Virus genome (UHGV): UHGV-0251712
Source: a virus
Length of the DNA: 16,144 nt
Direction: 5' to 3' (one strand)
The notes under the pieces are model-generated. The model was not told where the DNA came from. It made no database searches and saw nothing but the letters and a program-made list of their open reading frames with translations. Shown in pieces: positions 3,206 to 16,144 of the stretch. The position numbers and the translations under genes were made by a program. Position 1 is the stretch's first letter. Each line of letters starts with the position of its first letter.

Positions 3206-4204
3206 ATGTCTGATATTCGACAAAATAGAATAGAGTTAAATGAAGTGCATATAGCTCGCTCCATGGCTATATTTCTAGTTGTTTTACTTCATTCTTCAGG
3301 TGCTTTTTTTATGCAGTTTGGAGATCATTGGTGGATTGTTAATTTATACAGTTCTTTTTCAAGGCAGTGTATAGGTCTTTTTTTTCTTATCACTGGATAC
3401 CTATTTTATGAAAAAAACATAAACCCAACAGCACACCTAAAAAAAGGAGTGTCGAGATTGATAATACCATTCATATTTTGGTGGGTGGTATATTATATCT
3501 ACAATACAGAGATTAACAACAAATCATATAATTCTATATTTCAACCAAGTGAGGTACACCTTTGGTTTATGTATGCATATATTTGTATATATATGTTTTT
3601 ACCAATAATTTGCAACTCATTAAAACACATACCAACATATTACATTTTAATTATTGTAAGCATGCTTTTTTACTCAAATTCCATTGTCCCTGTAGTTGAT
3701 AAAACGATAATGAAGGTAACATGGTTTGATGTAAAACTAGTGTCTGAAAATGGGATATATATTCTTATTGGGGCAATAATAAGGAGATATAACGATAAAA
3801 TAAAAAAATGCAATGCAGTGATACCATTGGTGATTATTGTTATGTCGTGCCTGTTAACATCAATGGCATCTAGTTGGTGGTCTGAAATAACAGGCAGGCC
3901 TGAGCAGTTTTTCTTTAAAAATACATCTCCACTTGTATTAATATGTGTTATTTCTTCATTTACATTATGCATGTCATACTCAAAAATAATTAGCAAAAGA
4001 TTAATGAATTTATTTACATCAATATCAAATGTTTCATTTGGTATATACTTCGTCCATTTCTTTTTTGTTAGAGAAATTAGACTCGGGTATAATCAAGAAA
4101 ACGCATATTTCATGATACCATTGCTAACAATCATTTATTTTTTAATGTCATATTGCATATCAATAATTCTAAGCAAGATCCCTTTGCTTAGAAAAGTAAT
4201 ATAA
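3206..4204 (+). CDS. Integral-membrane acyltransferase (acyltransferase_3 family, Oac-like O-antigen O-acetyltransferase candidate)
   Basis: 332 aa and polytopic, with many hydrophobic segments. The N-terminal region RIELNEVHIARSMAIFLVVLLHSSG is typical of the family that includes phage Sf6 Oac. It is very AT-rich and sits between att and the tailspike, the usual slot for O-antigen modification genes in P22-like phages. Confidence 0.8.
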   Translation: MSDIRQNRIELNEVHIARSMAIFLVVLLHSSGAFFMQFGDHWWIVNLYSSFSRQCIGLFFLITGYLFYEKNINPTAHLKKGVSRLIIPFIFWWVVYYIYNTEINNKSYNSIFQPSEVHLWFMYAYICIYMFLPIICNSLKHIPTYYILIIVSMLFYSNSIVPVVDKTIMKVTWFDVKLVSENGIYILIGAIIRRYNDKIKKCNAVIPLVIIVMSCLLTSMASSWWSEITGRPEQFFFKNTSPLVLICVISSFTLCMSYSKIISKRLMNLFTSISNVSFGIYFVHFFFVREIRLGYNQENAYFMIPLLTIIYFLMSYCISIILSKIPLLRKVI

Positions 4205-10648: not shown

Positions 10649-10657
10649 GATTACCCC

Positions 10658-10822
10658 TTAAAACAACGAGCCAAGCAATCCGATACCAGCACCAATGCCA
10701 GCGCCCCAAGGCGTTGATGTTCCCAAAAGGCTGGCAAGACCTGCACCGGCAATCGCACCAGACGTGCCACCGCTAATTGCAGTCTGAAGACTTGATGGTT
10801 TAACCAAAGAGTAGTTGGCTTT
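10658..10822 (-). pseudogene. 3' stub (about 55 codons) of a gp7-position ejection protein gene
   Basis: The Gly/Ala-rich hydrophobic C-terminus ...SLQTAISGGTSGAIAGAGLASLLGTSTPWGAGIGAGIGLLGSLF ends just before the gp20-like gene. The upstream part of track ORF 10658..10855 is antisense ssb. Assignment is by position only. Confidence 0.4.
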
Positions 10823-10835
10823 GGGGTGACGTGAA

Positions 10836-11267
10836 GTGCAGCTGCACGACGGCAACCTGACAATAGCAACGTCAGAACAATGGCGAGATAAAAATACTGG
10901 CGAGCAAAAGGAATTGACTGAATGGCATCGTGTTGCTGTATCCGGGAAACTGGCTGAGGTCGTGGGGCAGTATGTGAAAAAAGGTGATCAGATTTATTTC
11001 GAGGGAATGCTGAGAACCAGAAAGTGGAAAGACCAGTCAGGGCAAGACCGTTACACAACCGAGGTTCATGTCGGAATTAATGGCGTGATGCAAATGCTTG
11101 GCGGCATTGGCGACAGCAAACAACAAGCAGCCAGCAGGCAATCACAGAAGCCACAGCAGCAATCATCACCAGCACAACACAACGAACCTCCGATGGATTT
11201 TGACGACGATATACCCTTTGCACCAGTAACTCTCCCCTTCCCTCGTCACGCTATTCACGCAATTTAA
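10836..11267 (+). pseudogene. ssb: Single-stranded DNA-binding protein lacking roughly the first 25-30 codons of the OB fold
   Basis: ..[70 protein letters not shown]...[11 protein letters not shown] is canonical SSB from about residue 30 onward. An in-frame TGA at 10827-10829 lies upstream, and only a GTG at 10836 is available as a start. Confidence 0.8.
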
Positions 11268-11280
11268 TCAGGAGAAAATC

Positions 11281-11577
11281 ATGCCAGCGCCTCAGTATGG
11301 TGCGGATGACCCGCGCCGCTGTTCCGGCAATTCCGTATCGGAGGTGCTGGATAAATTCAGAAAAAACTACGACCGGATAATGTCGCTACCGCAGGAAACA
11401 AAAGAGGAAAAGGAATTTCGCCACTGTATATGGCTTGCAGAGAAAGAAGAACGAGAGCGAATTTACCAGACATCAATCCGACCATTCCGCAAAGCCACAT
11501 ATACCCACTTCCCTGAATATATCGACCCGCGCCTGCGTAATTACCGCTCACGCTATGGCTCTATCAGTAATGACTGA
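11281..11577 (+). CDS. Hypothetical early-left operon protein (98 aa)
   Basis: GGAGAA SD lies just upstream of the ATG. It follows ssb by 13 bp, and its stop overlaps the next start (ATGACTGA). Confidence 0.55.
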
Positions 11578-11755
11578 GGAATTTACCATGAGAGGACTTG
11601 CATACAATCCCGGCATTCTTCCGGCAGAAATGATTATTCGCCAACGCGTAAAGCCAATGCCATCGAGAGAGGAATTGCTTAAGAGAAATTCTTTTCCGTC
11701 AGTAAATCAAAACAAATATCTGAATGCGATGTGGCGTAAAGGAGGCAAGCAGTGA
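11570..11755 (+). CDS. Hypothetical small protein (61 aa; alternative start 11588 gives 55 aa)
   Basis: The upstream part of track ORF 11435..11755 overlaps the previous gene. The ATG at 11570 overlaps its stop, and the ATG at 11588 has GAGGA 8 nt upstream. Confidence 0.45.
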
Positions 11756-12051
11756 GTGTATGTCTTATTGATAAACGTCGACGTGGGCAACAAATACCAT
11801 CTGTTGGAATGCCGAATCACACATGGTTTTGCGTACTTGATATCGATGGTATGGATGCGTTGGTTGACACTCGTCATTACTGCGATACCGCAACAGCTAC
11901 TCCGGCGAAAGCAAAGAAAATGGCTGCTCTGATAGAAAACTGGACTCCACCTGATGGTTGGTGCAATGGGAATGATCGAGATTGGCACGAAAAAATGAAG
12001 GGCTATATCTGCGATTTTTTACGTAAATGCAACGGATTCAGGGTGATGTGA
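11752..12051 (+). CDS. Hypothetical Cys/His-rich protein (99 aa)
   Basis: The GTG start overlaps the previous stop (GTGA), suggesting translational coupling. It ends 1 nt before the next ATG. Confidence 0.5.
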
Positions 12052-12052
12052 C

Positions 12053-12742
12053 ATGAGCAAGATTGCCTATCAGGCACTGCGTGAAAAGGCAGAGAAAGCA
12101 ACGTGTGGTGTGTGGTCGCTCGAATATGGAGAGGGCCGATTTGATGGTGATGATGCGCTAATTCATCGTGAAGTTGCTGGATATATTCCCATTTGCAGAA
12201 TTGAAGGAGCGCATCCTGAAAGCGGTTTCGATGAAGATTTCCAAATGGAACAGCAGGCCAATGCTGAATTCATCGCAGCAGCCAGTCCAGCTACCGTGCT
12301 GGCACTACTGGATGAACGGGAAAGAAACCAGCAGTACATCAAACGCCGCGACCAGGAGAACGAAGATATTGCGCTAACGGTAGGGAAGCTGCGTGTTGAT
12401 CTGGAAGCCGCAGAGAAGCGCAACGCAAAATTACAAAGCGAGAATGCATACATCCGCAACAGGTACAAAGAACTGGACCTATTAATCGGGAAAAACATTC
12501 TGGTCATGCAGGCTGCCATTATCGAATGGCAATCTACTGGCGACGCTAAAAGCGGACTGGCATGGATTTATAACACACTGTTTGGCCCAGGCGAATTGCC
12601 GGACGAATCTGAGAAAGATGCTCAGGCCTACTTTAATCGCAAAAATGAACCGATTGACGAAAAGCTTATGGAGCTTCACAAGTGGTTTTGGGAACAAAGT
12701 GAAGCCGAGCGTGTCGCTGGCATTCGCATCAAAGGAGAGTGA
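12053..12742 (+). CDS. Ead/Ea22-like family protein
   Basis: The N-terminus ALREKAEKATCGVWSLEYGEG..., a central coiled coil (KLRVDLEAAEKRNAKLQSENAYIRNRYKELD) and the ea-region location match lambdoid Ead/Ea22-like proteins as I remember them. Confidence 0.7.
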   Translation: MSKIAYQALREKAEKATCGVWSLEYGEGRFDGDDALIHREVAGYIPICRIEGAHPESGFDEDFQMEQQANAEFIAAASPATVLALLDERERNQQYIKRRDQENEDIALTVGKLRVDLEAAEKRNAKLQSENAYIRNRYKELDLLIGKNILVMQAAIIEWQSTGDAKSGLAWIYNTLFGPGELPDESEKDAQAYFNRKNEPIDEKLMELHKWFWEQSEAERVAGIRIKGE

Positions 12743-12743
12743 T

Positions 12744-12941
12744 ATGGATAAAAACACCACTGCTTACTGGAATCTGTCACTTGATACCGAATGCCCAAAA
12801 TGCGGTCACAATTTCGATCTGCTTTGTGACGCTGATTTCTGGGAGTTTTCTGGAGCTAAACAGGCATGTGAAGAAATAAAAGGTTACAAAACATGCTGTC
12901 CGGAATGTAACCATGAATTTAAAACAGATTTCATATATTGA
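12744..12941 (+). CDS. Small zinc-ribbon protein (65 aa)
   Basis: MDKNTTAYWNLSLDTECPKCGHNF...CCPECNHEF has two CxxC pairs. The ATG at 12744 has GGAGAG upstream. The N-terminal part of track ORF 12582..12941 overlaps the Ea22-like gene and is discounted. Confidence 0.55.
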   Translation: MDKNTTAYWNLSLDTECPKCGHNFDLLCDADFWEFSGAKQACEEIKGYKTCCPECNHEFKTDFIY

Positions 12942-12951
12942 GGCATAACAA

Positions 12952-13398
12952 ATGACCACTATTACCAAAGAACGTATTGAATTGTTCATTAAAAATCCGC
13001 TTGAAAACGGGCTTACTCGTGGCGAACAAATGGAACTGGCACGAATTGCACTGGCATCACTGGAACGCGAACTGATTCGCCACGAGCATGCCAAATGGTC
13101 TGACTCCACATTTGGCTGCGTTGGCCCCATTGGTCCACTGAAACACCTCTCAAAAGAGACACTGGAAGCCGCAGCCGAACCAGACGATCTTAGCGAGTGG
13201 GCTGATATGCAGTTTCTGTTGTGGGATGCACAGCGCCGTGCTGGCATCAGCGATGCTGAAATTACCGCTGCTATGGAAGATAAATTGAAGATCAACATGG
13301 AGCGCCAGTGGCCTGAGCCAAAAGATGGTGAGCCTCGCTTGCACATTAAAGAACTCGGCAACTCTCCGGTAATTCCGGATGGTTCGGATGATGGTTAA
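12952..13398 (+). CDS. DUF550 / MazG-like dATP-dGTP pyrophosphohydrolase-domain protein
   Basis: HEHAKWSDSTFG...GPLKHLSKETLEAAAEPDDLSEWADMQFLLWDAQRRAGISDAEITAAMEDKLKINMERQWPEP matches the DUF550 pattern common in lambdoid ea regions, as I remember it. Confidence 0.6.
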   Translation: MTTITKERIELFIKNPLENGLTRGEQMELARIALASLERELIRHEHAKWSDSTFGCVGPIGPLKHLSKETLEAAAEPDDLSEWADMQFLLWDAQRRAGISDAEITAAMEDKLKINMERQWPEPKDGEPRLHIKELGNSPVIPDGSDDG

Positions 13399-13433
13399 CC
13401 ATTTTTGATGTAAAAACATCCTTCTCTGAGGGC

Positions 13434-13462
13434 TTGCTCCTCAATAAGTTTGGTTTTATAAT
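13434..13462 (+). promoter_or_regulatory. Candidate sigma70 promoter for the NYN cassette
   Basis: TTGCTC (13434-13439), a 17-nt spacer, then a perfect TATAAT (13457-13462), about 85 nt upstream of the NYN ORF. Sequence inspection only. Confidence 0.4.
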
Positions 13463-13547
13463 TACGCGCAATGAAGGTGGGCGGTTCGCTACTATACAAG
13501 AGGGGTGTACCCCGCGAACTTAACCCACCACCACTTTCCTCTCTACT

Positions 13548-14195
13548 ATGAATTGCAAATCAATGACCAGAAAATATGCCATCATGATCGATGCTGGTTT
13601 TTTGCGTGCAAAATTAGGCACAAAAGATAAGCCAATCGATGCGGAAGTAATCAAAGTATTTGTAGAAAAACTAACAAAAAGGCATGAACTAGAAGGCATG
13701 ATTTTGCACCGTGTTTATTATTACGATGCAGAGCCGCTTACCGGAATACAGACGCATCCGATTAGTGGAGAGAAAATTGACTTCTCTGAAACAGAAGTTT
13801 CTAAAAGAAATAAAGCCATGCTTGATGAGTTGAAAAGAACTCCTTTTTTTGCAGTAAGACTTGGAGAGACAAACTTTCGAGGATGGAAGGTTGACCCATG
13901 GGCATTAAAGAGCAGTGACTCTAAAACTTCTTCCATTAATGCCTACAATGTTAAGCCTAATGTTCAGCAGAAAGGCGTTGATATGCGTATTGCGTTAGAT
14001 ATGTCATCAATGTCATTAAAAAAACAGGCAGATATATATGCTTTGGTGACTGGTGATTCAGATTTTGTTCCAATTATAAAATTTGCTAGGAAAGAAGGCC
14101 GACAGATTTTTCTATACACACTGGGACATAGTGTCAAGCAGACGATGTATGAACATTCCGATTTGTTAGTGCCAGATACCATGGATAAATTGTGA
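13548..14195 (+). CDS. NYN/LabA-like (PIN-fold) ribonuclease-domain protein, 215 aa (alternative start 13563)
   Basis: The motifs AIMIDAGF (N-terminal Asp), QQKGVDMRIALDM and ALVTGDSDFVPIIKFARKEGRQIF are the conserved acidic motifs of NYN/DUF88 domains. The gene is clearly more AT-rich than the flanking ea genes. Confidence 0.75.
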   Translation: MNCKSMTRKYAIMIDAGFLRAKLGTKDKPIDAEVIKVFVEKLTKRHELEGMILHRVYYYDAEPLTGIQTHPISGEKIDFSETEVSKRNKAMLDELKRTPFFAVRLGETNFRGWKVDPWALKSSDSKTSSINAYNVKPNVQQKGVDMRIALDMSSMSLKKQADIYALVTGDSDFVPIIKFARKEGRQIFLYTLGHSVKQTMYEHSDLLVPDTMDKL

Positions 14196-14374
14196 TTGGA
14201 GCTAGGAATAGGTTAGCCGCGCCTTAATAGATGATCCATTCTGGCAGAAAAAGAACACAAAGAAGTAGCCTAAGTGCCCCCAACTGCATTTACACCCAGG
14301 CCCTCATTGCGGGTCTTTCTATTTACAGAGATGGCTGAGCAGAACGCCAAGAACTGACAACCTGAACGAATACG

Positions 14375-14400
14375 AACCCGCCTAGTGCGGGTTTTCTTTT
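14375..14400 (+). terminator. Intrinsic terminator T1
   Basis: AACCCGC-CTAGT-GCGGGTT stem-loop followed by TTTTCTTTT. Confidence 0.7.
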
Positions 14401-14405
14401 ATCTG

Positions 14406-14430
14406 AACTCGCTACGGCGAGTTTTGTTTT
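14406..14430 (+). terminator. Intrinsic terminator T2 (tandem to T1)
   Basis: AACTCGC-TACG-GCGAGTT stem-loop followed by TTTTGTTTT. It is a paralogous copy of T1 with compensatory stem changes. Confidence 0.7.
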
Positions 14431-14442
14431 ATGGAGATGATT

Positions 14443-14742
14443 ATGGCCTGTTCAACATTCAACCATTTAACGTTACAGAAATACCAGCCAGACCCTGAAG
14501 ATTTATGCTCACTGTGTGGCGGAAATCATGGTAAAGCCGCCATGATCGAATGTAAGGACAAAATCCACATTTGCCTTAATTGCGTTGATGTCCTCGTTGA
14601 TATCAAAAATGAGAGAGAAGATAAAAAGCGTAGCGAGGCTATTCGCGCATTAGATTCATGGATGCGAGATGGGTATAGTGCTGCGCAAATTTATGACTTC
14701 GCAATATCAAAAGGCGAAATACCAGGAGTGCGCATCGAATAA
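14443..14742 (+). CDS. Cys-rich (zinc-finger-like) protein with a possible C-terminal HTH, 99 aa (track start 14431)
   Basis: CSLCGG...CLNCVD are paired CxxC motifs. The C-terminal GYSAAQIYDFAISKGEIPGVRIE looks Xis/HTH-like. GGAGA lies about 5 nt before the ATG at 14443. No family recognised. Confidence 0.5.
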   Translation: MACSTFNHLTLQKYQPDPEDLCSLCGGNHGKAAMIECKDKIHICLNCVDVLVDIKNEREDKKRSEAIRALDSWMRDGYSAAQIYDFAISKGEIPGVRIE

Positions 14743-14823: not shown

Positions 14824-14928
14824 ATGACCGATACCAGCCTGATTCCTGAGAAAGAAGTGATGAACAAGCTCGGTGTTTCATCACGTCAGACAATCTGGAA
14901 CTATACCAAACGGCACGGATGGATATAG
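14824..14928 (+). CDS. AlpA/Xis-like HTH ORF, only 34 codons; its last 12 nt (last three sense codons plus the stop) lie inside IR-L, so probably truncated
   Basis: MTDTSLIPEKEVMNKLGVSSRQTIWNYTKRHG-WI-stop. It has the AlpA-type HTH (LGVSSRQTIWNY) but lacks the usual ..FP.P.. wing that follows it. GGAGA SD lies upstream. Confidence 0.5.
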   Translation: MTDTSLIPEKEVMNKLGVSSRQTIWNYTKRHGWI

Positions 14929-15189
14929 GTTACTGGCGAACACATGATTTCAGAAGAACGCTTGTTACACGTCTGTCCGAGATGAATGTCGAGCCTCATG
15001 TTACTGAGCGAATGCTCGGTCATGAACTTGGCGGGATAATGTCCGTATACAATAAACACGATTGGATAGAGGCTCAGCGCAAAGCGTATGAGCTTCACGC
15101 TGATAAATTGTTCTGGCACATCAGGAGCATTTCTGATTAACGCCACCGTTAAGTGAAATCATGTGTTCGCCAGTAACCTATATCCATCC
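14917..15189. repeat. Perfect 36-bp inverted repeats (14917-14952 and 15154-15189) flanking a 201-bp segment
   Basis: GGATGGATATAGGTTACTGGCGAACACATGATTTCA at 14917-14952 is the exact reverse complement of 15154-15189. The match ends at both outer and both inner boundaries. Confidence 0.95.
14919..15140 (+). pseudogene. int: Integrase C-terminal catalytic module (73 codons) on the opposite strand from the rest of the gene
   Basis: MDIGYWRTHDFRRTLVTRLSEMNVEPHVTERMLGHELGGIMSVYNKHDWIEAQRKAYELHADKLFWHIRSISD carries the tyrosine-recombinase box II (HDFRRT), the LGH histidine and the Tyr-nucleophile region. Confidence 0.85.
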
Positions 15190-16144
15190 CTCCCCTTATT
15201 CTATTTACGAATCGGTTGGCTGCAGCGATGCTGATCGGTTTGTTTATGTCTTCTCCAGGGAAAAGAACATCATTGTACGTTGTCATGGCCTTATCGAGGA
15301 AAGGCTTAATTTGTTCGAAGATTGGACGGCGGATAACATTACCCATCTTGCTATGCTCTTTCGGTACGGTCCATACGTTGTCCAGCAGGTCAAATTCTGT
15401 CTTTGTTGCCAGCCTAAGCTCTGAGAGCCTCGCCCCCCACAGCATAAGCATCTGATGAAGGAGCTTATTTGACGTAGACGCACGGCTTCTTTCAATAGCA
15501 AGCCAAATCTTAGCCAGTTCGTGATACGACAGTACCCGATCCCCTACCTCAGCGCGGGAGCCGAAGTCCCTTGGCTGGATGCTCATAATTGCGCAACTAT
15601 CTATCAACTGACGCCGCATGCACCAACTAATTGCTGATCTTAGTTGACTTAGCACCTGCCTTGCTCGGCGTGGATTATCTTTTTCTTCTTCGGTAAGCAG
15701 GTCAACCCATTGCTTAACCGTGATAGAAGATGCCGGACGATTAGGAAAGGCGTCATGCATGCGCTTCATAACCGTTGATCGGTAAAGTGCCTGGGTCTTT
15801 TCTCTGAGAGTTGTAGAGACGTAGTTGTCGAACCAGTAGTCGAGACACTGGGCGACCGTCATGGAGTTCTCCACCTTCTCTTCAAAATAAGTGCGTGGAT
15901 CCGTTCCTGAGAAATAGAGCTTTCGCAAGTCAGCAGTGATCTGTCTGGCATCCTTCAAAGACAGGGATGGGTATCGACCAAGCCCAAGTCGATTAGGCTT
16001 GCCATGCCAGCGATAGCGGTACTGGAACTGGATGACCCCCTTCGGTGAAATTCGTACGCTGAGGCCATCGGCATCAGCCACTTCTTGTGGGCCCGAATAT
16101 GGTTTACCATAAATAGTACGCAGTTTTGTGTCGCTTATAGCCAT
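15149..16144 (-). pseudogene. int: P4-type tyrosine integrase, N-terminal 330 codons (arm-binding/DUF4102-like plus core-binding and first catalytic part), ending prematurely just past IR-R
   Basis: MAISDTKLRTIYGKPYSGPQEVADADGLSVRISPKGVIQFQYRYRWHGKPNRLGLGRYPSLSLKDARQ is a classic P4-family integrase N-terminus. The ORF ends ..GGMDIGYWRTHDF-T-stop and lacks the H-x-x-R, His and Tyr residues. Its ATG is the last triplet of the window. Confidence 0.9.

Follow-up and report, generated by a model that had tools for sequence, protein, structure and literature searches.

The locus described here raises the question of what a lone nuclease gene is doing in a decayed E. coli prophage, and of what holds it in check. 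It lies within a 16,144-nt stretch of the virus genome UHGV-0251712, termed the window herein, and had been put forward from the letters alone as an autonomous RNase cassette and candidate single-gene defence or toxin module. The region is a self-contained mobile cassette, i.e. a phage moron, and both its limits and its mobility are demonstrated below. Its parts are tentatively taken to be a sigma-70 promoter, a three-helix leader RNA of ~58 nt, an NYN gene of 210 aa and a terminator of its own; the best reading of the leader is as the control element of the RNase itself, whether as an autoregulatory attenuator or as a type III-like antitoxin. The features, all on the + strand, are as follows.

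13357–14325, +, mobile cassette unit, the segment in common with other phages
13434–13462, +, sigma-70-like promoter, with TTGCTC at 13434–13439, a 17-nt spacer and TATAAT at 13457–13462 (sequence reading, conservation)
13474–13531, +, three-helix leader RNA motif (covariance model R1, covariation)
13476–13481 with 13524–13529, +, leader helix P1
13483–13489 with 13514–13520, +, leader helix P2
13490–13501, +, 5′ side of the leader internal loop, UACUAUACAAGA
13502–13505 with 13510–13513, +, leader helix P3
13563–14195, +, gene for an NYN (LabA-like, PIN-fold) nuclease, 210 aa plus stop
14298–14325, +, the cassette's own intrinsic terminator, a hairpin at 14298–14316 followed by a T-rich tail (terminator scan)
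14328–14357, +, last 30 nt of a holE/theta-like backbone gene, a 3′-end remnant that marks the right junction, outside the cassette
14374–14434, +, two tandem backbone terminators, with hairpins at 14374–14394 and 14405–14424 and T tails (terminator scan)

The boundaries emerge from comparison with other elements. Positions 13359–14323 can be aligned with a lambdoid prophage of Klebsiella (L014) at 87.5 % identity, and likeness to E. coli DETEC-E601 begins at 13357, despite different genes on the left; for Serratia and Morganella, the alignable parts are 13448–14173 and 13478–14165, respectively. At the right-hand side, 14328–14357 aligns with the end of a coding sequence annotated in E. coli JX2 as 'DNA polymerase III subunit theta', and over 1300 further E. 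coli genomes align likewise; the tandem-terminator sequence is also found 3′ of the holE-like gene in prophages that have no NYN cassette. The two tandem terminators that the sequence-only reading had given to the cassette are therefore present, but belong to the backbone, where they follow the holE-like gene that has been replaced. Likewise, about half of the proposed 3′ UTR of ~180 nt is backbone, leaving the cassette, which has its own terminator at 14298–14325, with a 3′ UTR of about 105–130 nt. This terminator is conserved in Klebsiella at the end of the shared segment, and forms a better hairpin there (GGGCCCGCAUUGCGGGCC then UUUUUAUU). A 35-aa ORF within the 3′ UTR (14231–14338) was considered and rejected, as it runs across the cassette junction and its Klebsiella counterpart lacks a start codon. 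The proposed autonomy is supported, the cassette being a moron-like unit of deviant base composition: GC content is 0.379 for the NYN coding sequence and 0.401 for the cassette, against 0.469 for the ea region at 11281–13398, so that the gene is indeed more AT-rich than its ea neighbours.

The cassette is found in at least three different prophage slots, as well as in non-syntenic chromosomal islands. In E. coli it comes last in the P22-like early-left operon, ahead of xis-int, in Klebsiella it occupies a lambdoid nin region, and in Serratia and Morganella the space between the tail chaperone and tape measure genes. More distant relatives are carried by conjugative plasmids and, in the cI–N (rex) slot, by Stx2a and ev099-like phages. 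On chromosomes, copies occur at non-syntenic spots adjoining transposases, toxin–antitoxin genes and defence genes, with transposase, VapC, MazF, AbiE, Gabija and type III restriction-modification genes as recurrent neighbours; others, many in number, adjoin housekeeping genes, for example inside a nif cluster or beside pyrimidine biosynthesis genes. The distribution is patchy, with relatives detected in 456 of 185,579 species genomes, and six Arenicellales genomes display no synteny around the gene. The neighbourhood survey thus ties the homologues to mobile elements. No gene recurs beside NYN in any phage or chromosomal context examined, and the earlier remark that a protein antitoxin-like partner is missing extends to all of these contexts.

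In these respects the cassette resembles the morons of lambdoid and P22-like phages, such as rexAB, sieB and the holE-like theta gene of the same slot. It has a predicted promoter and terminator of its own, the former conserved in position and the latter conserved at the cassette end, its GC content is deviant, its presence and position vary among related phages and prophages, and its place is the last in the early-left operon, a distant NYN homologue occupying the cI–N slot. It differs from them in its cargo, an RNase with a dedicated RNA element, for which no exclusion phenotype is known. The description of the host element as a gutted prophage is borne out, as ejection-protein and tailspike genes adjoin a truncated ssb and early-left genes, and genes for head, lysis, replication and immunity are missing between them. 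Retention of the cassette in such a remnant had been taken to suggest host-level selection, but this argument is weak: neighbouring early-left genes were kept too, the cassette is present in just 7 of 5426 complete E. coli genomes (the same slot holds the holE-like gene in more than 1300), and in KTa005 and DETEC-E601 it lies inside complete-looking prophages. In one of the seven E. coli genomes the NYN gene is disrupted, with the leader kept.

With regard to the protein, translation confirms all four of the motifs previously picked out in a 215-aa ORF, namely IMIDAGF, QKGVDMRIALD, LVTGDSDFVP and KEGRQIF. The longer frame (13548–14195) begins at an alternative in-frame start; the second ATG, at 13563, is preferred by homologues and by the PGAP annotation. 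Pfam NYN (PF01936) is matched with 45.3 bits against a cut-off of 24.2 (E-value 1.6 × 10−11), and the match is restricted to residues 129–191 because the N-terminal half is divergent. Structure comparison reveals a PIN-like three-layer alpha/beta fold that can be superposed on solved NYN domains, at 14–19 % identity to the solved structures (2qip VPA0982 and the MARF1 NYN domain 5yaa), whilst a PDB sequence search with a 65-sequence profile returned no matches. The window protein has D10, D140, D146, D165 and D167, none of which varies among 65 homologues. From profile, fold and residue conservation, the product is thus identified as an NYN/LabA-like PIN-fold nuclease with an intact predicted catalytic residue set, and it is under strong purifying selection; it would be a metal-dependent endoribonuclease. 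Like other LabA-like/COG1432 NYN proteins, it scores above the Pfam threshold and conserves the Asp residues of IDAGF, QKGVD and GDSDF. Unlike them, its family carries an insertion of ~60 extra residues (approximately 57–125) with invariant R99, G101, G107 and W108 ('RLGE..FRGW'), has neither an OST-HTH nor any other fused domain, and is paired with a leader RNA.

The promoter-like TTGCTC-17-TATAAT is present exactly as had been read. A generic promoter scanner made no call at 13434–13462, since the −35 element agrees with TTGACA at just three of six positions. Both elements are retained in the Klebsiella and Serratia copies (TATAAT/TATAGT for the −10, TTGCTC/TTGCGC for the −35), and many homologous loci, distant ones included, possess TTGACA-N17-TAnAAT at the equivalent position relative to the hairpin. 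The best promoter score upstream of homologues averages 7.67, compared with 6.12 in shuffled sequences. Across homologous loci, the position of the predicted promoter is therefore conserved. The distance from the end of the −10 to the hairpin is mostly 16–20 nt (at loci scoring ≥9 of 12) and 13 nt in the window. Judged by the promoter position, transcription would start near 13469, so that the leader begins a few nucleotides thereafter.

The leader stem-loop noticed in the sequence-only reading is real. In the window it folds with −29 kcal/mol (z −2.8), and with covariation counted it goes far beyond chance. Covariance model R1 finds a single match in the window (70.6 bits, E-value about 1 × 10−12). 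In the R1-model alignment, 97.9 % of cells pair, with compensatory changes at 16 of 18 pairs, against 38–55 % paired in slid controls; an independent, plain MAFFT alignment of the remaining variants gives 97.3 %. Covarying pairs include G–U pairs that are compatible with the sense strand alone. When all variants are placed in one plain MAFFT alignment, their helices do not line up, so that RNAalifold recovered P3 alone; supplying the structure by hand, building covariance models and counting each variant separately solved this. On this comparative evidence, the predicted RNA structure is established by covariation. Between the window and Serratia, the leader is 93 % identical and the coding sequence 76 % (synonymous sites being saturated, with pS 0.81).

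The internal loop of 10–12 nt is conserved in sequence, and the architecture is kept across Gamma- and Betaproteobacteria, with loops that differ by variant (UACAAUCCAAGA, ACAUAUAACAG, YCAUAUAAGAG and UACUAUACAAGA). Directly after P1, 44 of 67 elements have a U-tract, with the start codon located 10–57 nt further downstream; leaders of the window type have none (ACCACUUUCCUCUCU). No alternative (antiterminator) pairing was found in the leader, and there are no tandem repeats within 13300–14500, the leader RNA being one hairpin. Pairing of the internal loop with the start-codon region as a pseudoknot was also considered and set aside, as the longest complementarity averages 4.63 nt versus 4.84 nt in shuffles. 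Rfam 15 has no match at E-value ≤1 over the whole window, and at E-value ≤10 over 13420–13580 its sole match is a chance antisense snoRNA (E-value 7.1). Literature searches turned up no publication on the motif.

The motif lies upstream of NYN in 78 of 79 evaluable chromosomal homologues, and in phage copies too. Models R1 and R2 jointly match 72 of 80 genome loci, with six further loci representing a fourth variant, and each match is on the NYN strand, directly upstream of the gene. Within E. coli, the leader is confined to the seven NYN-carrying genomes. Linkage of the RNA to this NYN subfamily is thus near-obligate, and the earlier suggestion that control might be RNA-based, by way of the leader, is strongly reinforced by a conserved, covarying motif that travels with the gene. 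R1 and R2 detect no motif at distant homologues (≤38 % identity, phage ev099 and a Campylobacter plasmid). The distant ev099 homologue is preceded by a different terminator-like hairpin. Two repeats with the motif only are present on the 45-kb contig JAEHJW020004482.1.

RNase E, RNase III and PNPase each control their own expression through a structured leader in the mRNA, and ribosomal protein L4 brings about termination at a hairpin of the S10 leader. The NYN cassette may work along similar lines. As with hp2 of the rne 5′ UTR, the rnc and pnp leaders and the L4–S10 attenuator, a conserved stem–loop with an internal loop occupies the 5′ UTR of a gene whose product is an RNA-binding or RNA-cutting protein, and in the S10 case the terminator hairpin is itself the regulatory target. 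Those leaders, in contrast, are found at syntenic housekeeping genes and their conservation is limited to narrow clades, whereas the NYN leader accompanies a gene that is rare and mobile, in two classes of proteobacteria and in their phages. We infer that the NYN protein may bind or cut its leader, and that feedback, toxicity and a role in phage exclusion or defence may be involved. While the leader is being made, the protein would recognise its conserved, asymmetric internal loop together with the helices on either side, and so shut down its own synthesis. It could do so by cleaving the leader or by stabilising the hairpin, which in two-thirds of the family would double as an intrinsic terminator just ahead of the start codon. 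In the lysogen, the level of a potentially harmful RNase would thereby stay low and buffered. The probability of this whole model, a mobile cassette whose leader is a dedicated control element for feedback by NYN, is put at roughly 0.45. Several observations count against it. Termination attenuation cannot be the universal mechanism, given that the window-type leader is devoid of a U-tract; neither antiterminator pairing nor excess complementarity of the loop to the start-codon region was found; three motif copies without an intact NYN gene, on one metagenomic contig, speak for an RNA that acts in trans more than for a leader that acts purely in cis; and type III toxin–antitoxin loci share the order of structured RNA, terminator and nuclease gene.

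That layout underlies a rather unlikely alternative, namely a type III-like toxin–antitoxin or abortive-infection module in which the leader RNA would neutralise a putative NYN toxin. The leader would accumulate in excess as a discrete small RNA of ~65–75 nt ending at P1 and the U-tract, the toxin would be translated from read-through transcripts alone, and the RNase would be set free once phage infection or loss of the cassette had exhausted the labile RNA. As in ToxIN, CptIN and TenpIN, one promoter precedes a structured non-coding RNA and then an endoribonuclease gene, most family members have a terminator-like element after the RNA, no protein antitoxin accompanies them, and the family is carried by mobile elements, being found on phages, on plasmids and in islands that are rich in toxin–antitoxin and defence genes. 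RNA and gene are co-inherited, and the motif exists without an intact NYN gene (as in the one E. coli genome with leader kept and NYN disrupted), whilst NYN without the motif is nearly absent. Set against this, the fold is NYN/PIN-like and not that of the ToxN/AbiQ endoribonucleases, with no ToxN or AbiQ match for the protein in Pfam or PADLOC; a single three-helix hairpin stands where ToxIN-type antitoxins have 2–5 tandem direct repeats of ~36 nt; the U-tract after P1 is absent from the window copy; and the only NYN defence candidate to have been tested, the distant HEC-09, is inactive. It is similarly unlikely that the locus is the founding example of a new RNA-antitoxin class, in which a single structured leader would neutralise an NYN-fold toxin and phages, plasmids and islands would spread the pair as a system of abortive infection or exclusion with a single gene. 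Under that view, the copies of the motif alone on one mobile contig might serve as decoys or as anti-toxin RNAs.

Two further explanations were weighed. The first, which is quite improbable, holds that the hairpin is a generic one (an insulating terminator or 5′ stabilising stem) and that phages acquired by chance an NYN gene for an ordinary cellular RNA-processing enzyme, with no specific relationship between RNA and protein and no toxin or defence role. The many chromosomal homologues beside nif or pyrimidine biosynthesis genes would suit this, as would the different hairpin before the ev099 homologue and the link drawn in earlier work between certain bacterial NYN genes and operons for tRNA/rRNA maturation (PMC5499597), but a conserved loop and architecture across two proteobacterial classes far exceed the needs of a terminator, and the patchy distribution, the lack of shared synteny in Arenicellales, the recurrent transposase, toxin and defence neighbours and the several moron slots also count against it. 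A riboswitch, or other ligand- or factor-sensing attenuator, is highly improbable. Here, the leader would be an aptamer for a small molecule, host or phage factor, binding of which would stabilise or destabilise a P1 terminator and so switch the RNase on or off. Small aptamers are typically compact like this element, with covarying helices and an asymmetric internal loop that is highly conserved, the U-tract follows P1 in two-thirds of cases, and with no Rfam match it would be an orphan class; against this, riboswitches usually control several functionally linked genes and this motif stands almost solely before one gene family, its loop sequence varies by variant in a manner that fits protein co-evolution better than a fixed ligand pocket, and no other pairing that might act as an expression platform was detected.

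The family of bacterial LabA-like NYN proteins is very large; a 2017 classification (PMC5499597) listed its molecular function as unknown, and no later functional study was found. This subfamily now comes with a built-in clue, in that a covarying RNA, absent from Rfam, accompanies it on chromosomes, phages and plasmids. The leader is an obvious candidate for the natural ligand, substrate or inhibitor of the enzyme, turning an RNase of unknown role into a directly testable RNA–protein pair. If the leader is an autoregulatory attenuator, it would represent a new and widespread class of cis-regulatory RNA; if it is an antitoxin, RNA-antitoxin systems would reach beyond the ToxN fold, and the cassette would be a new single-gene prophage exclusion module.

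Searches for a counterpart among defence systems yielded weak, partial matches and no full-length match to a validated system (PADLOC-DB v2). The matches are PDLC01154 'NYN' (E-value 2.3 × 10−5, residues 139–187) and HEC-09 (E-value 2.5 × 10−4, residues 134–183). HEC-09, an NYN protein embedded in Hma systems, is like the window protein a single-gene NYN candidate with similarity to MARF1, but has an N-terminal HTH-like domain. It is the only NYN candidate to have been tested, and gave no protection against the phages tried (bioRxiv 10.1101/2024.01.29.577857). Membership in HEC-09 or another PADLOC system was rejected. HEC-09 is, moreover, distant from the window protein. Literature searches on NYN together with prophage, anti-phage defence, RNA antitoxin or riboswitch returned nothing specific.

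Pattern scans for the leader in other collections gave many coincidental matches. In metagenomes, about 115 of 121 matches to the 15-mer GCTACAATCCAAGAG are due to chance, with unrelated flanks, and those set apart from them are L096, L114, L141 and L155. A gapped-pattern scan of viral sequences produced coding-sequence coincidences for all seven variant-A matches and two of ten variant-B matches, which were discarded; the remaining eight variant-B matches lie directly upstream of NYN.

DNA comparison delimits the mobile NYN RNase cassette to about 13357–14325. Across window 13359–14323 it is 87.5 % identical to a Klebsiella lambdoid prophage, and similarity to Escherichia coli DETEC-E601 starts at 13357 despite different genes leftward. 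DNA similarity extends over 13448–14173 for Serratia and 13478–14165 for Morganella. The cassette and its right flank comprise:

13434–13439 and 13457–13462: promoter-like TTGCTC and TATAAT, 17-nt spacer
13474–13531: leader RNA with three helices (P1, P2 and P3)
13563–14195, + strand: NYN gene, 210 aa
14298–14325: the cassette's own terminator, at the end of the shared unit
14328–14357: last 30 nt of a theta-like gene (a holE/DNA polymerase III theta-like phage moron)
14374–14394 and 14405–14424: two terminators after the theta-like remnant
14431–14742, + strand: 103-aa ORF

The sequence-only reading had given the cassette two tandem terminators. Both are present, but they belong to the phage backbone, because over 1300 E. 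coli genomes without NYN have the stretch that holds them downstream of an intact theta-like gene; the cassette ends instead at its own terminator, the hairpin of which is cleaner in Klebsiella. The cassette thus took the place of most of the theta-like moron. Its prophage slots are of three unrelated kinds. In E. coli it lies at the P22-like early-left end; in the Klebsiella prophage and on a Klebsiella phage-plasmid, in a lambdoid nin region with a theta-like gene after it; and in Serratia and Morganella, between the tape measure gene and a tail-chaperone-like gene. Its status as an autonomous mobile unit is established.

Translation of 13548–14195 (+) yields the previously reported ORF and its NYN motifs. 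The likely gene is 13563–14195, since homologues start at the second ATG and the PGAP annotation of DETEC-E601 gives 210 aa. In Klebsiella (locus L014, 9985–10005) a 6-codon upstream ORF (MNCYNQ) overlaps the NYN start codon through its terminal AUGA, and a 2-nt difference in the window (13548–13565) joins this ORF in frame, generating the 215-aa reading. The Serratia and Morganella copies have no such upstream ORF, and no candidate NYN start codon is preceded by a clear Shine–Dalgarno sequence. The window protein has every one of the 30 residues found to be invariant across a 65-sequence alignment, D10, D140, D146, D165 and D167 among them, and a dN/dS of 0.06 against the Klebsiella copy indicates strong purifying selection. 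The protein is established as a constrained NYN nuclease with its catalytic residue set intact. Approximately 60 residues (roughly 57–125) have no counterpart in solved NYN domains; this insertion bears invariant R99, G101, G107 and W108, and is a candidate RNA-recognition element. As noted from composition, the gene is AT-rich (GC 0.379, versus 0.469 in the early-left ea genes leftward). RefSeq names it 'NYN domain-containing protein', and it falls within PHROG 5783, of unknown function.

The proposed promoter hexamers are where they had been placed, and both the −10 and −35 are kept in the Klebsiella and Serratia copies; a generic promoter scanner makes no call at 13434–13462 because the −35 is weak. 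Distant homologous loci possess a promoter-like pair at a like position relative to the hairpin, often TTGACA-N17-TAnAAT, with a mean best score of 7.67 of 12 versus 6.12 in shuffles. Where the score reaches 9 of 12 or more, the distance from the −10 end to helix P1 is mostly 16–20 nt, versus 13 nt in the window. Transcription would accordingly start near 13469, a few nucleotides 5′ of the structured element.

The leader does fold into the anticipated stem–loop (−29 kcal/mol, z −2.8). P1 (6–7 bp) is followed by a small internal loop, P2 (5–8 bp) and P3, a variable hairpin, with a conserved loop of 10–12 nt on the 5′ side only, between P2 and P3. Loop variants are UACAAUCCAAGA, ACAUAUAACAG and YCAUAUAAGAG, with UACUAUACAAGA being the window type. 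The leader is almost invariant amongst the window, Klebsiella, Serratia and Morganella, where CDS identity is only 68–92 %; between the window and Serratia it is 93 % identical, whilst the CDS is 76 % identical with synonymous sites saturated (pS 0.81). The same architecture precedes homologues of 42–53 % identity in 80 genomes of Gamma- and Betaproteobacteria. A covariance model of the leader built from 14 seeds (R1) matches window 13474–13531 with 70.6 bits (E about 1e-12), and finds one match in almost every locus, always on the strand of the gene and directly upstream. In the R1 alignment 97.9 % of cells are standard pairs, with compensatory changes in 16 of 18 pairs, whilst sliding the partner by 1–3 columns leaves 38–55 % paired. 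Aligning the other variants plainly with MAFFT and counting on a hand-given structure gives 97.3 % paired, with 8 of 17 pairs compensatory and slid controls at 27–50 %. G–U pairs are frequent in the helices, consistent with a sense-strand RNA.

Together, R1 and a second covariance model, R2, account for 72 of the 80 loci. A further six have a fourth variant, visible by single-sequence folding only; of the remaining two, one lacks upstream DNA and the other keeps just the motif's 3′ half, leaving the leader present at 78 of 79 evaluable chromosomal loci. Most phage contigs with homologues of at least 41 % identity also bear the motif, although neither model matched contigs L258 (67 % identity) and L266 (92 %). 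Homologues of 38 % identity or less, including those of phage ev099 and Campylobacter plasmids, have no R1/R2 motif. In E. coli the leader is confined to the seven genomes carrying the NYN gene. That this structured RNA is conserved and accompanies the NYN gene almost without exception is established. The motif carries no annotation, Rfam 15 gave no match to it, and literature searches returned no description.

Certain loci depart from this arrangement. At L018 (about 700–830) only the leader 3′ half is kept, with promoter and 5′ half replaced and the NYN ORF full length. In E. coli WP4-S18-ESBL-08 (NZ_AP022095.1, 1486448–1487350) one of the seven carriers, NYN aligns in two pieces and lacks about 14 %; the annotation lists two hypothetical proteins, and the leader is intact (97 % identity). 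The 45 kb metagenomic contig JAEHJW020004482.1 holds three leader copies (L141 198–266, L141 1515–1583 and L096 11773–11841, − strand), of 66.8 bits each and 100 % identical over 80 nt. One precedes a NYN gene that is cut off after 15 codons, and the other two, which no NYN gene accompanies, lie within direct repeats of 220 bp; the surroundings include an integrase and phage-like genes. The copies may be leftovers, or else genes for trans-acting or decoy RNAs.

With regard to the role of the RNA, the reading ranked foremost is that the NYN protein recognises it as an autoregulatory leader or attenuator (probability roughly 0.45). Precedents for such control are the leaders of rne, rnc and pnp and the L4–S10 attenuator. 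A U-tract lies within a few nucleotides 3′ of P1 in 44 of 67 elements, P1 often being preceded by an A-rich tail (AUAAAAAAC); elements with the tract resemble an intrinsic terminator, 10–57 nt 5′ of the start codon. The window-type leader has no U-tract (ACCACUUUCCUCUCU), and the leader loop shows no excess complementarity to the start-codon region. Ranked next, and somewhat unlikely, is a type III-like RNA antitoxin, for which the layout fits and motif-only remnants exist; type III systems are, however, defined by a ToxN fold and an RNA repeat array, and the cassette has neither, with no tandem repeats found at it.

A generic hairpin with no specific partner is improbable, and a riboswitch ranks last as the most improbable role. 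As anticipated, there is no obvious protein partner, as no protein-coding neighbour recurs across the phage and chromosomal contexts examined. The cassette can be placed among known kinds of element (a moron, a leader-controlled RNase or an RNA-antitoxin module); the boldest reading, a new class of RNA antitoxin with the NYN fold as its basis, is somewhat unlikely.

Beyond the leader-bearing set, full-length distant homologues (30–35 % identity) occupy the cI–N slot, the position of rexAB in lambda, in Escherichia phage ev099 and 48 Stx2a-converting phages. These have a different, long three-segment hairpin with U7 directly before the start codon, which neither R1 nor R2 matches; at the ev099 locus (L277 3933–3990) the protein is 30 % identical and 285 aa long. 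Other distant homologues reside on 136 Campylobacter plasmids, mostly conjugative. Chromosomal copies are rare (relatives in 456 of 185,579 species genomes) and not syntenic, with six Arenicellales genomes having no common flanking genes. Mobile and defence-type neighbours did emerge, in a rough survey of 132 neighbouring ORFs from 33 loci made without a matched control: recurrent families are transposases, VapC-type PIN, MazF and AbiEii-like ATPases, with type III restriction-modification, GajA, SngA and AbiEi also present, mixed with housekeeping genes. In Methylomonas subterranea (L008/L015) the NYN gene (L008 8001–8618) and leader sit inside a nitrogen-fixation cluster, with ferredoxin-like genes to one side and nifENX towards the other, and on the strand opposite to their neighbours. 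A putative toxin or phage-exclusion role is compatible with these genomic contexts. HEC-09, a PADLOC candidate that matches the window protein weakly and is the sole NYN candidate to have been assayed, gave no protection against any phage tested (bioRxiv 10.1101/2024.01.29.577857).

Pfam scans of the window's ORFs give the order host sbmC and dacD; an AT-rich O-antigen acyltransferase gene; a P22-type tailspike, mnt and two ejection-protein genes; a junction to an N-terminally truncated ssb; abc2, DUF2737, DUF7739, an Ead/Ea22 gene and dATP/dGTP pyrophosphohydrolase; NYN; the 103-aa zinc-ribbon-like ORF; and two integrases. Flanking features are:

3206–4204, + strand: acyltransferase-3 family gene, ~30 % GC, flanked by the host dacD side and the tailspike gene
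10651–11267: deletion junction, where a 135-aa ORF (−) after the ejection-protein genes overlaps truncated ssb (+)
14919–15140, + strand: integrase C-terminal fragment, at the end of the early-left operon
15149–16144, − strand: second, different integrase with an Arm-DNA-binding domain, directly after the fragment and continuing past the window edge

The description as a gutted prophage is correct, because these scans reveal no genes for head, lysis, replication or immunity. The whole interval from the tail/ejection genes to those for early-left recombination is gone, and ssb matches SSB profile positions 27–99 only. The argument for host-level selection from retention in this remnant is weak, because the context is atypical (in E. 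coli KTa005 and DETEC-E601 the cassette lies in complete-looking prophages, directly before xis-int), the cassette is rare (7 of 5426 complete E. coli genomes, with NYN disrupted in one), and early-left neighbours were retained too. The early-left operon ends without an excisionase, and the opposed integrases suggest a second element integrated in tandem, or rearrangement. The 103-aa ORF (PHROG 3680, of unknown function) has CxxC...CxxC spacing and weak ClpX zinc-binding domain matches (E about 2e-3), and is a conserved backbone gene with the theta-like slot on one side and xis on the other. The acyltransferase-3 gene, which probably serves O-antigen modification, is a second strongly AT-rich moron of the same remnant.
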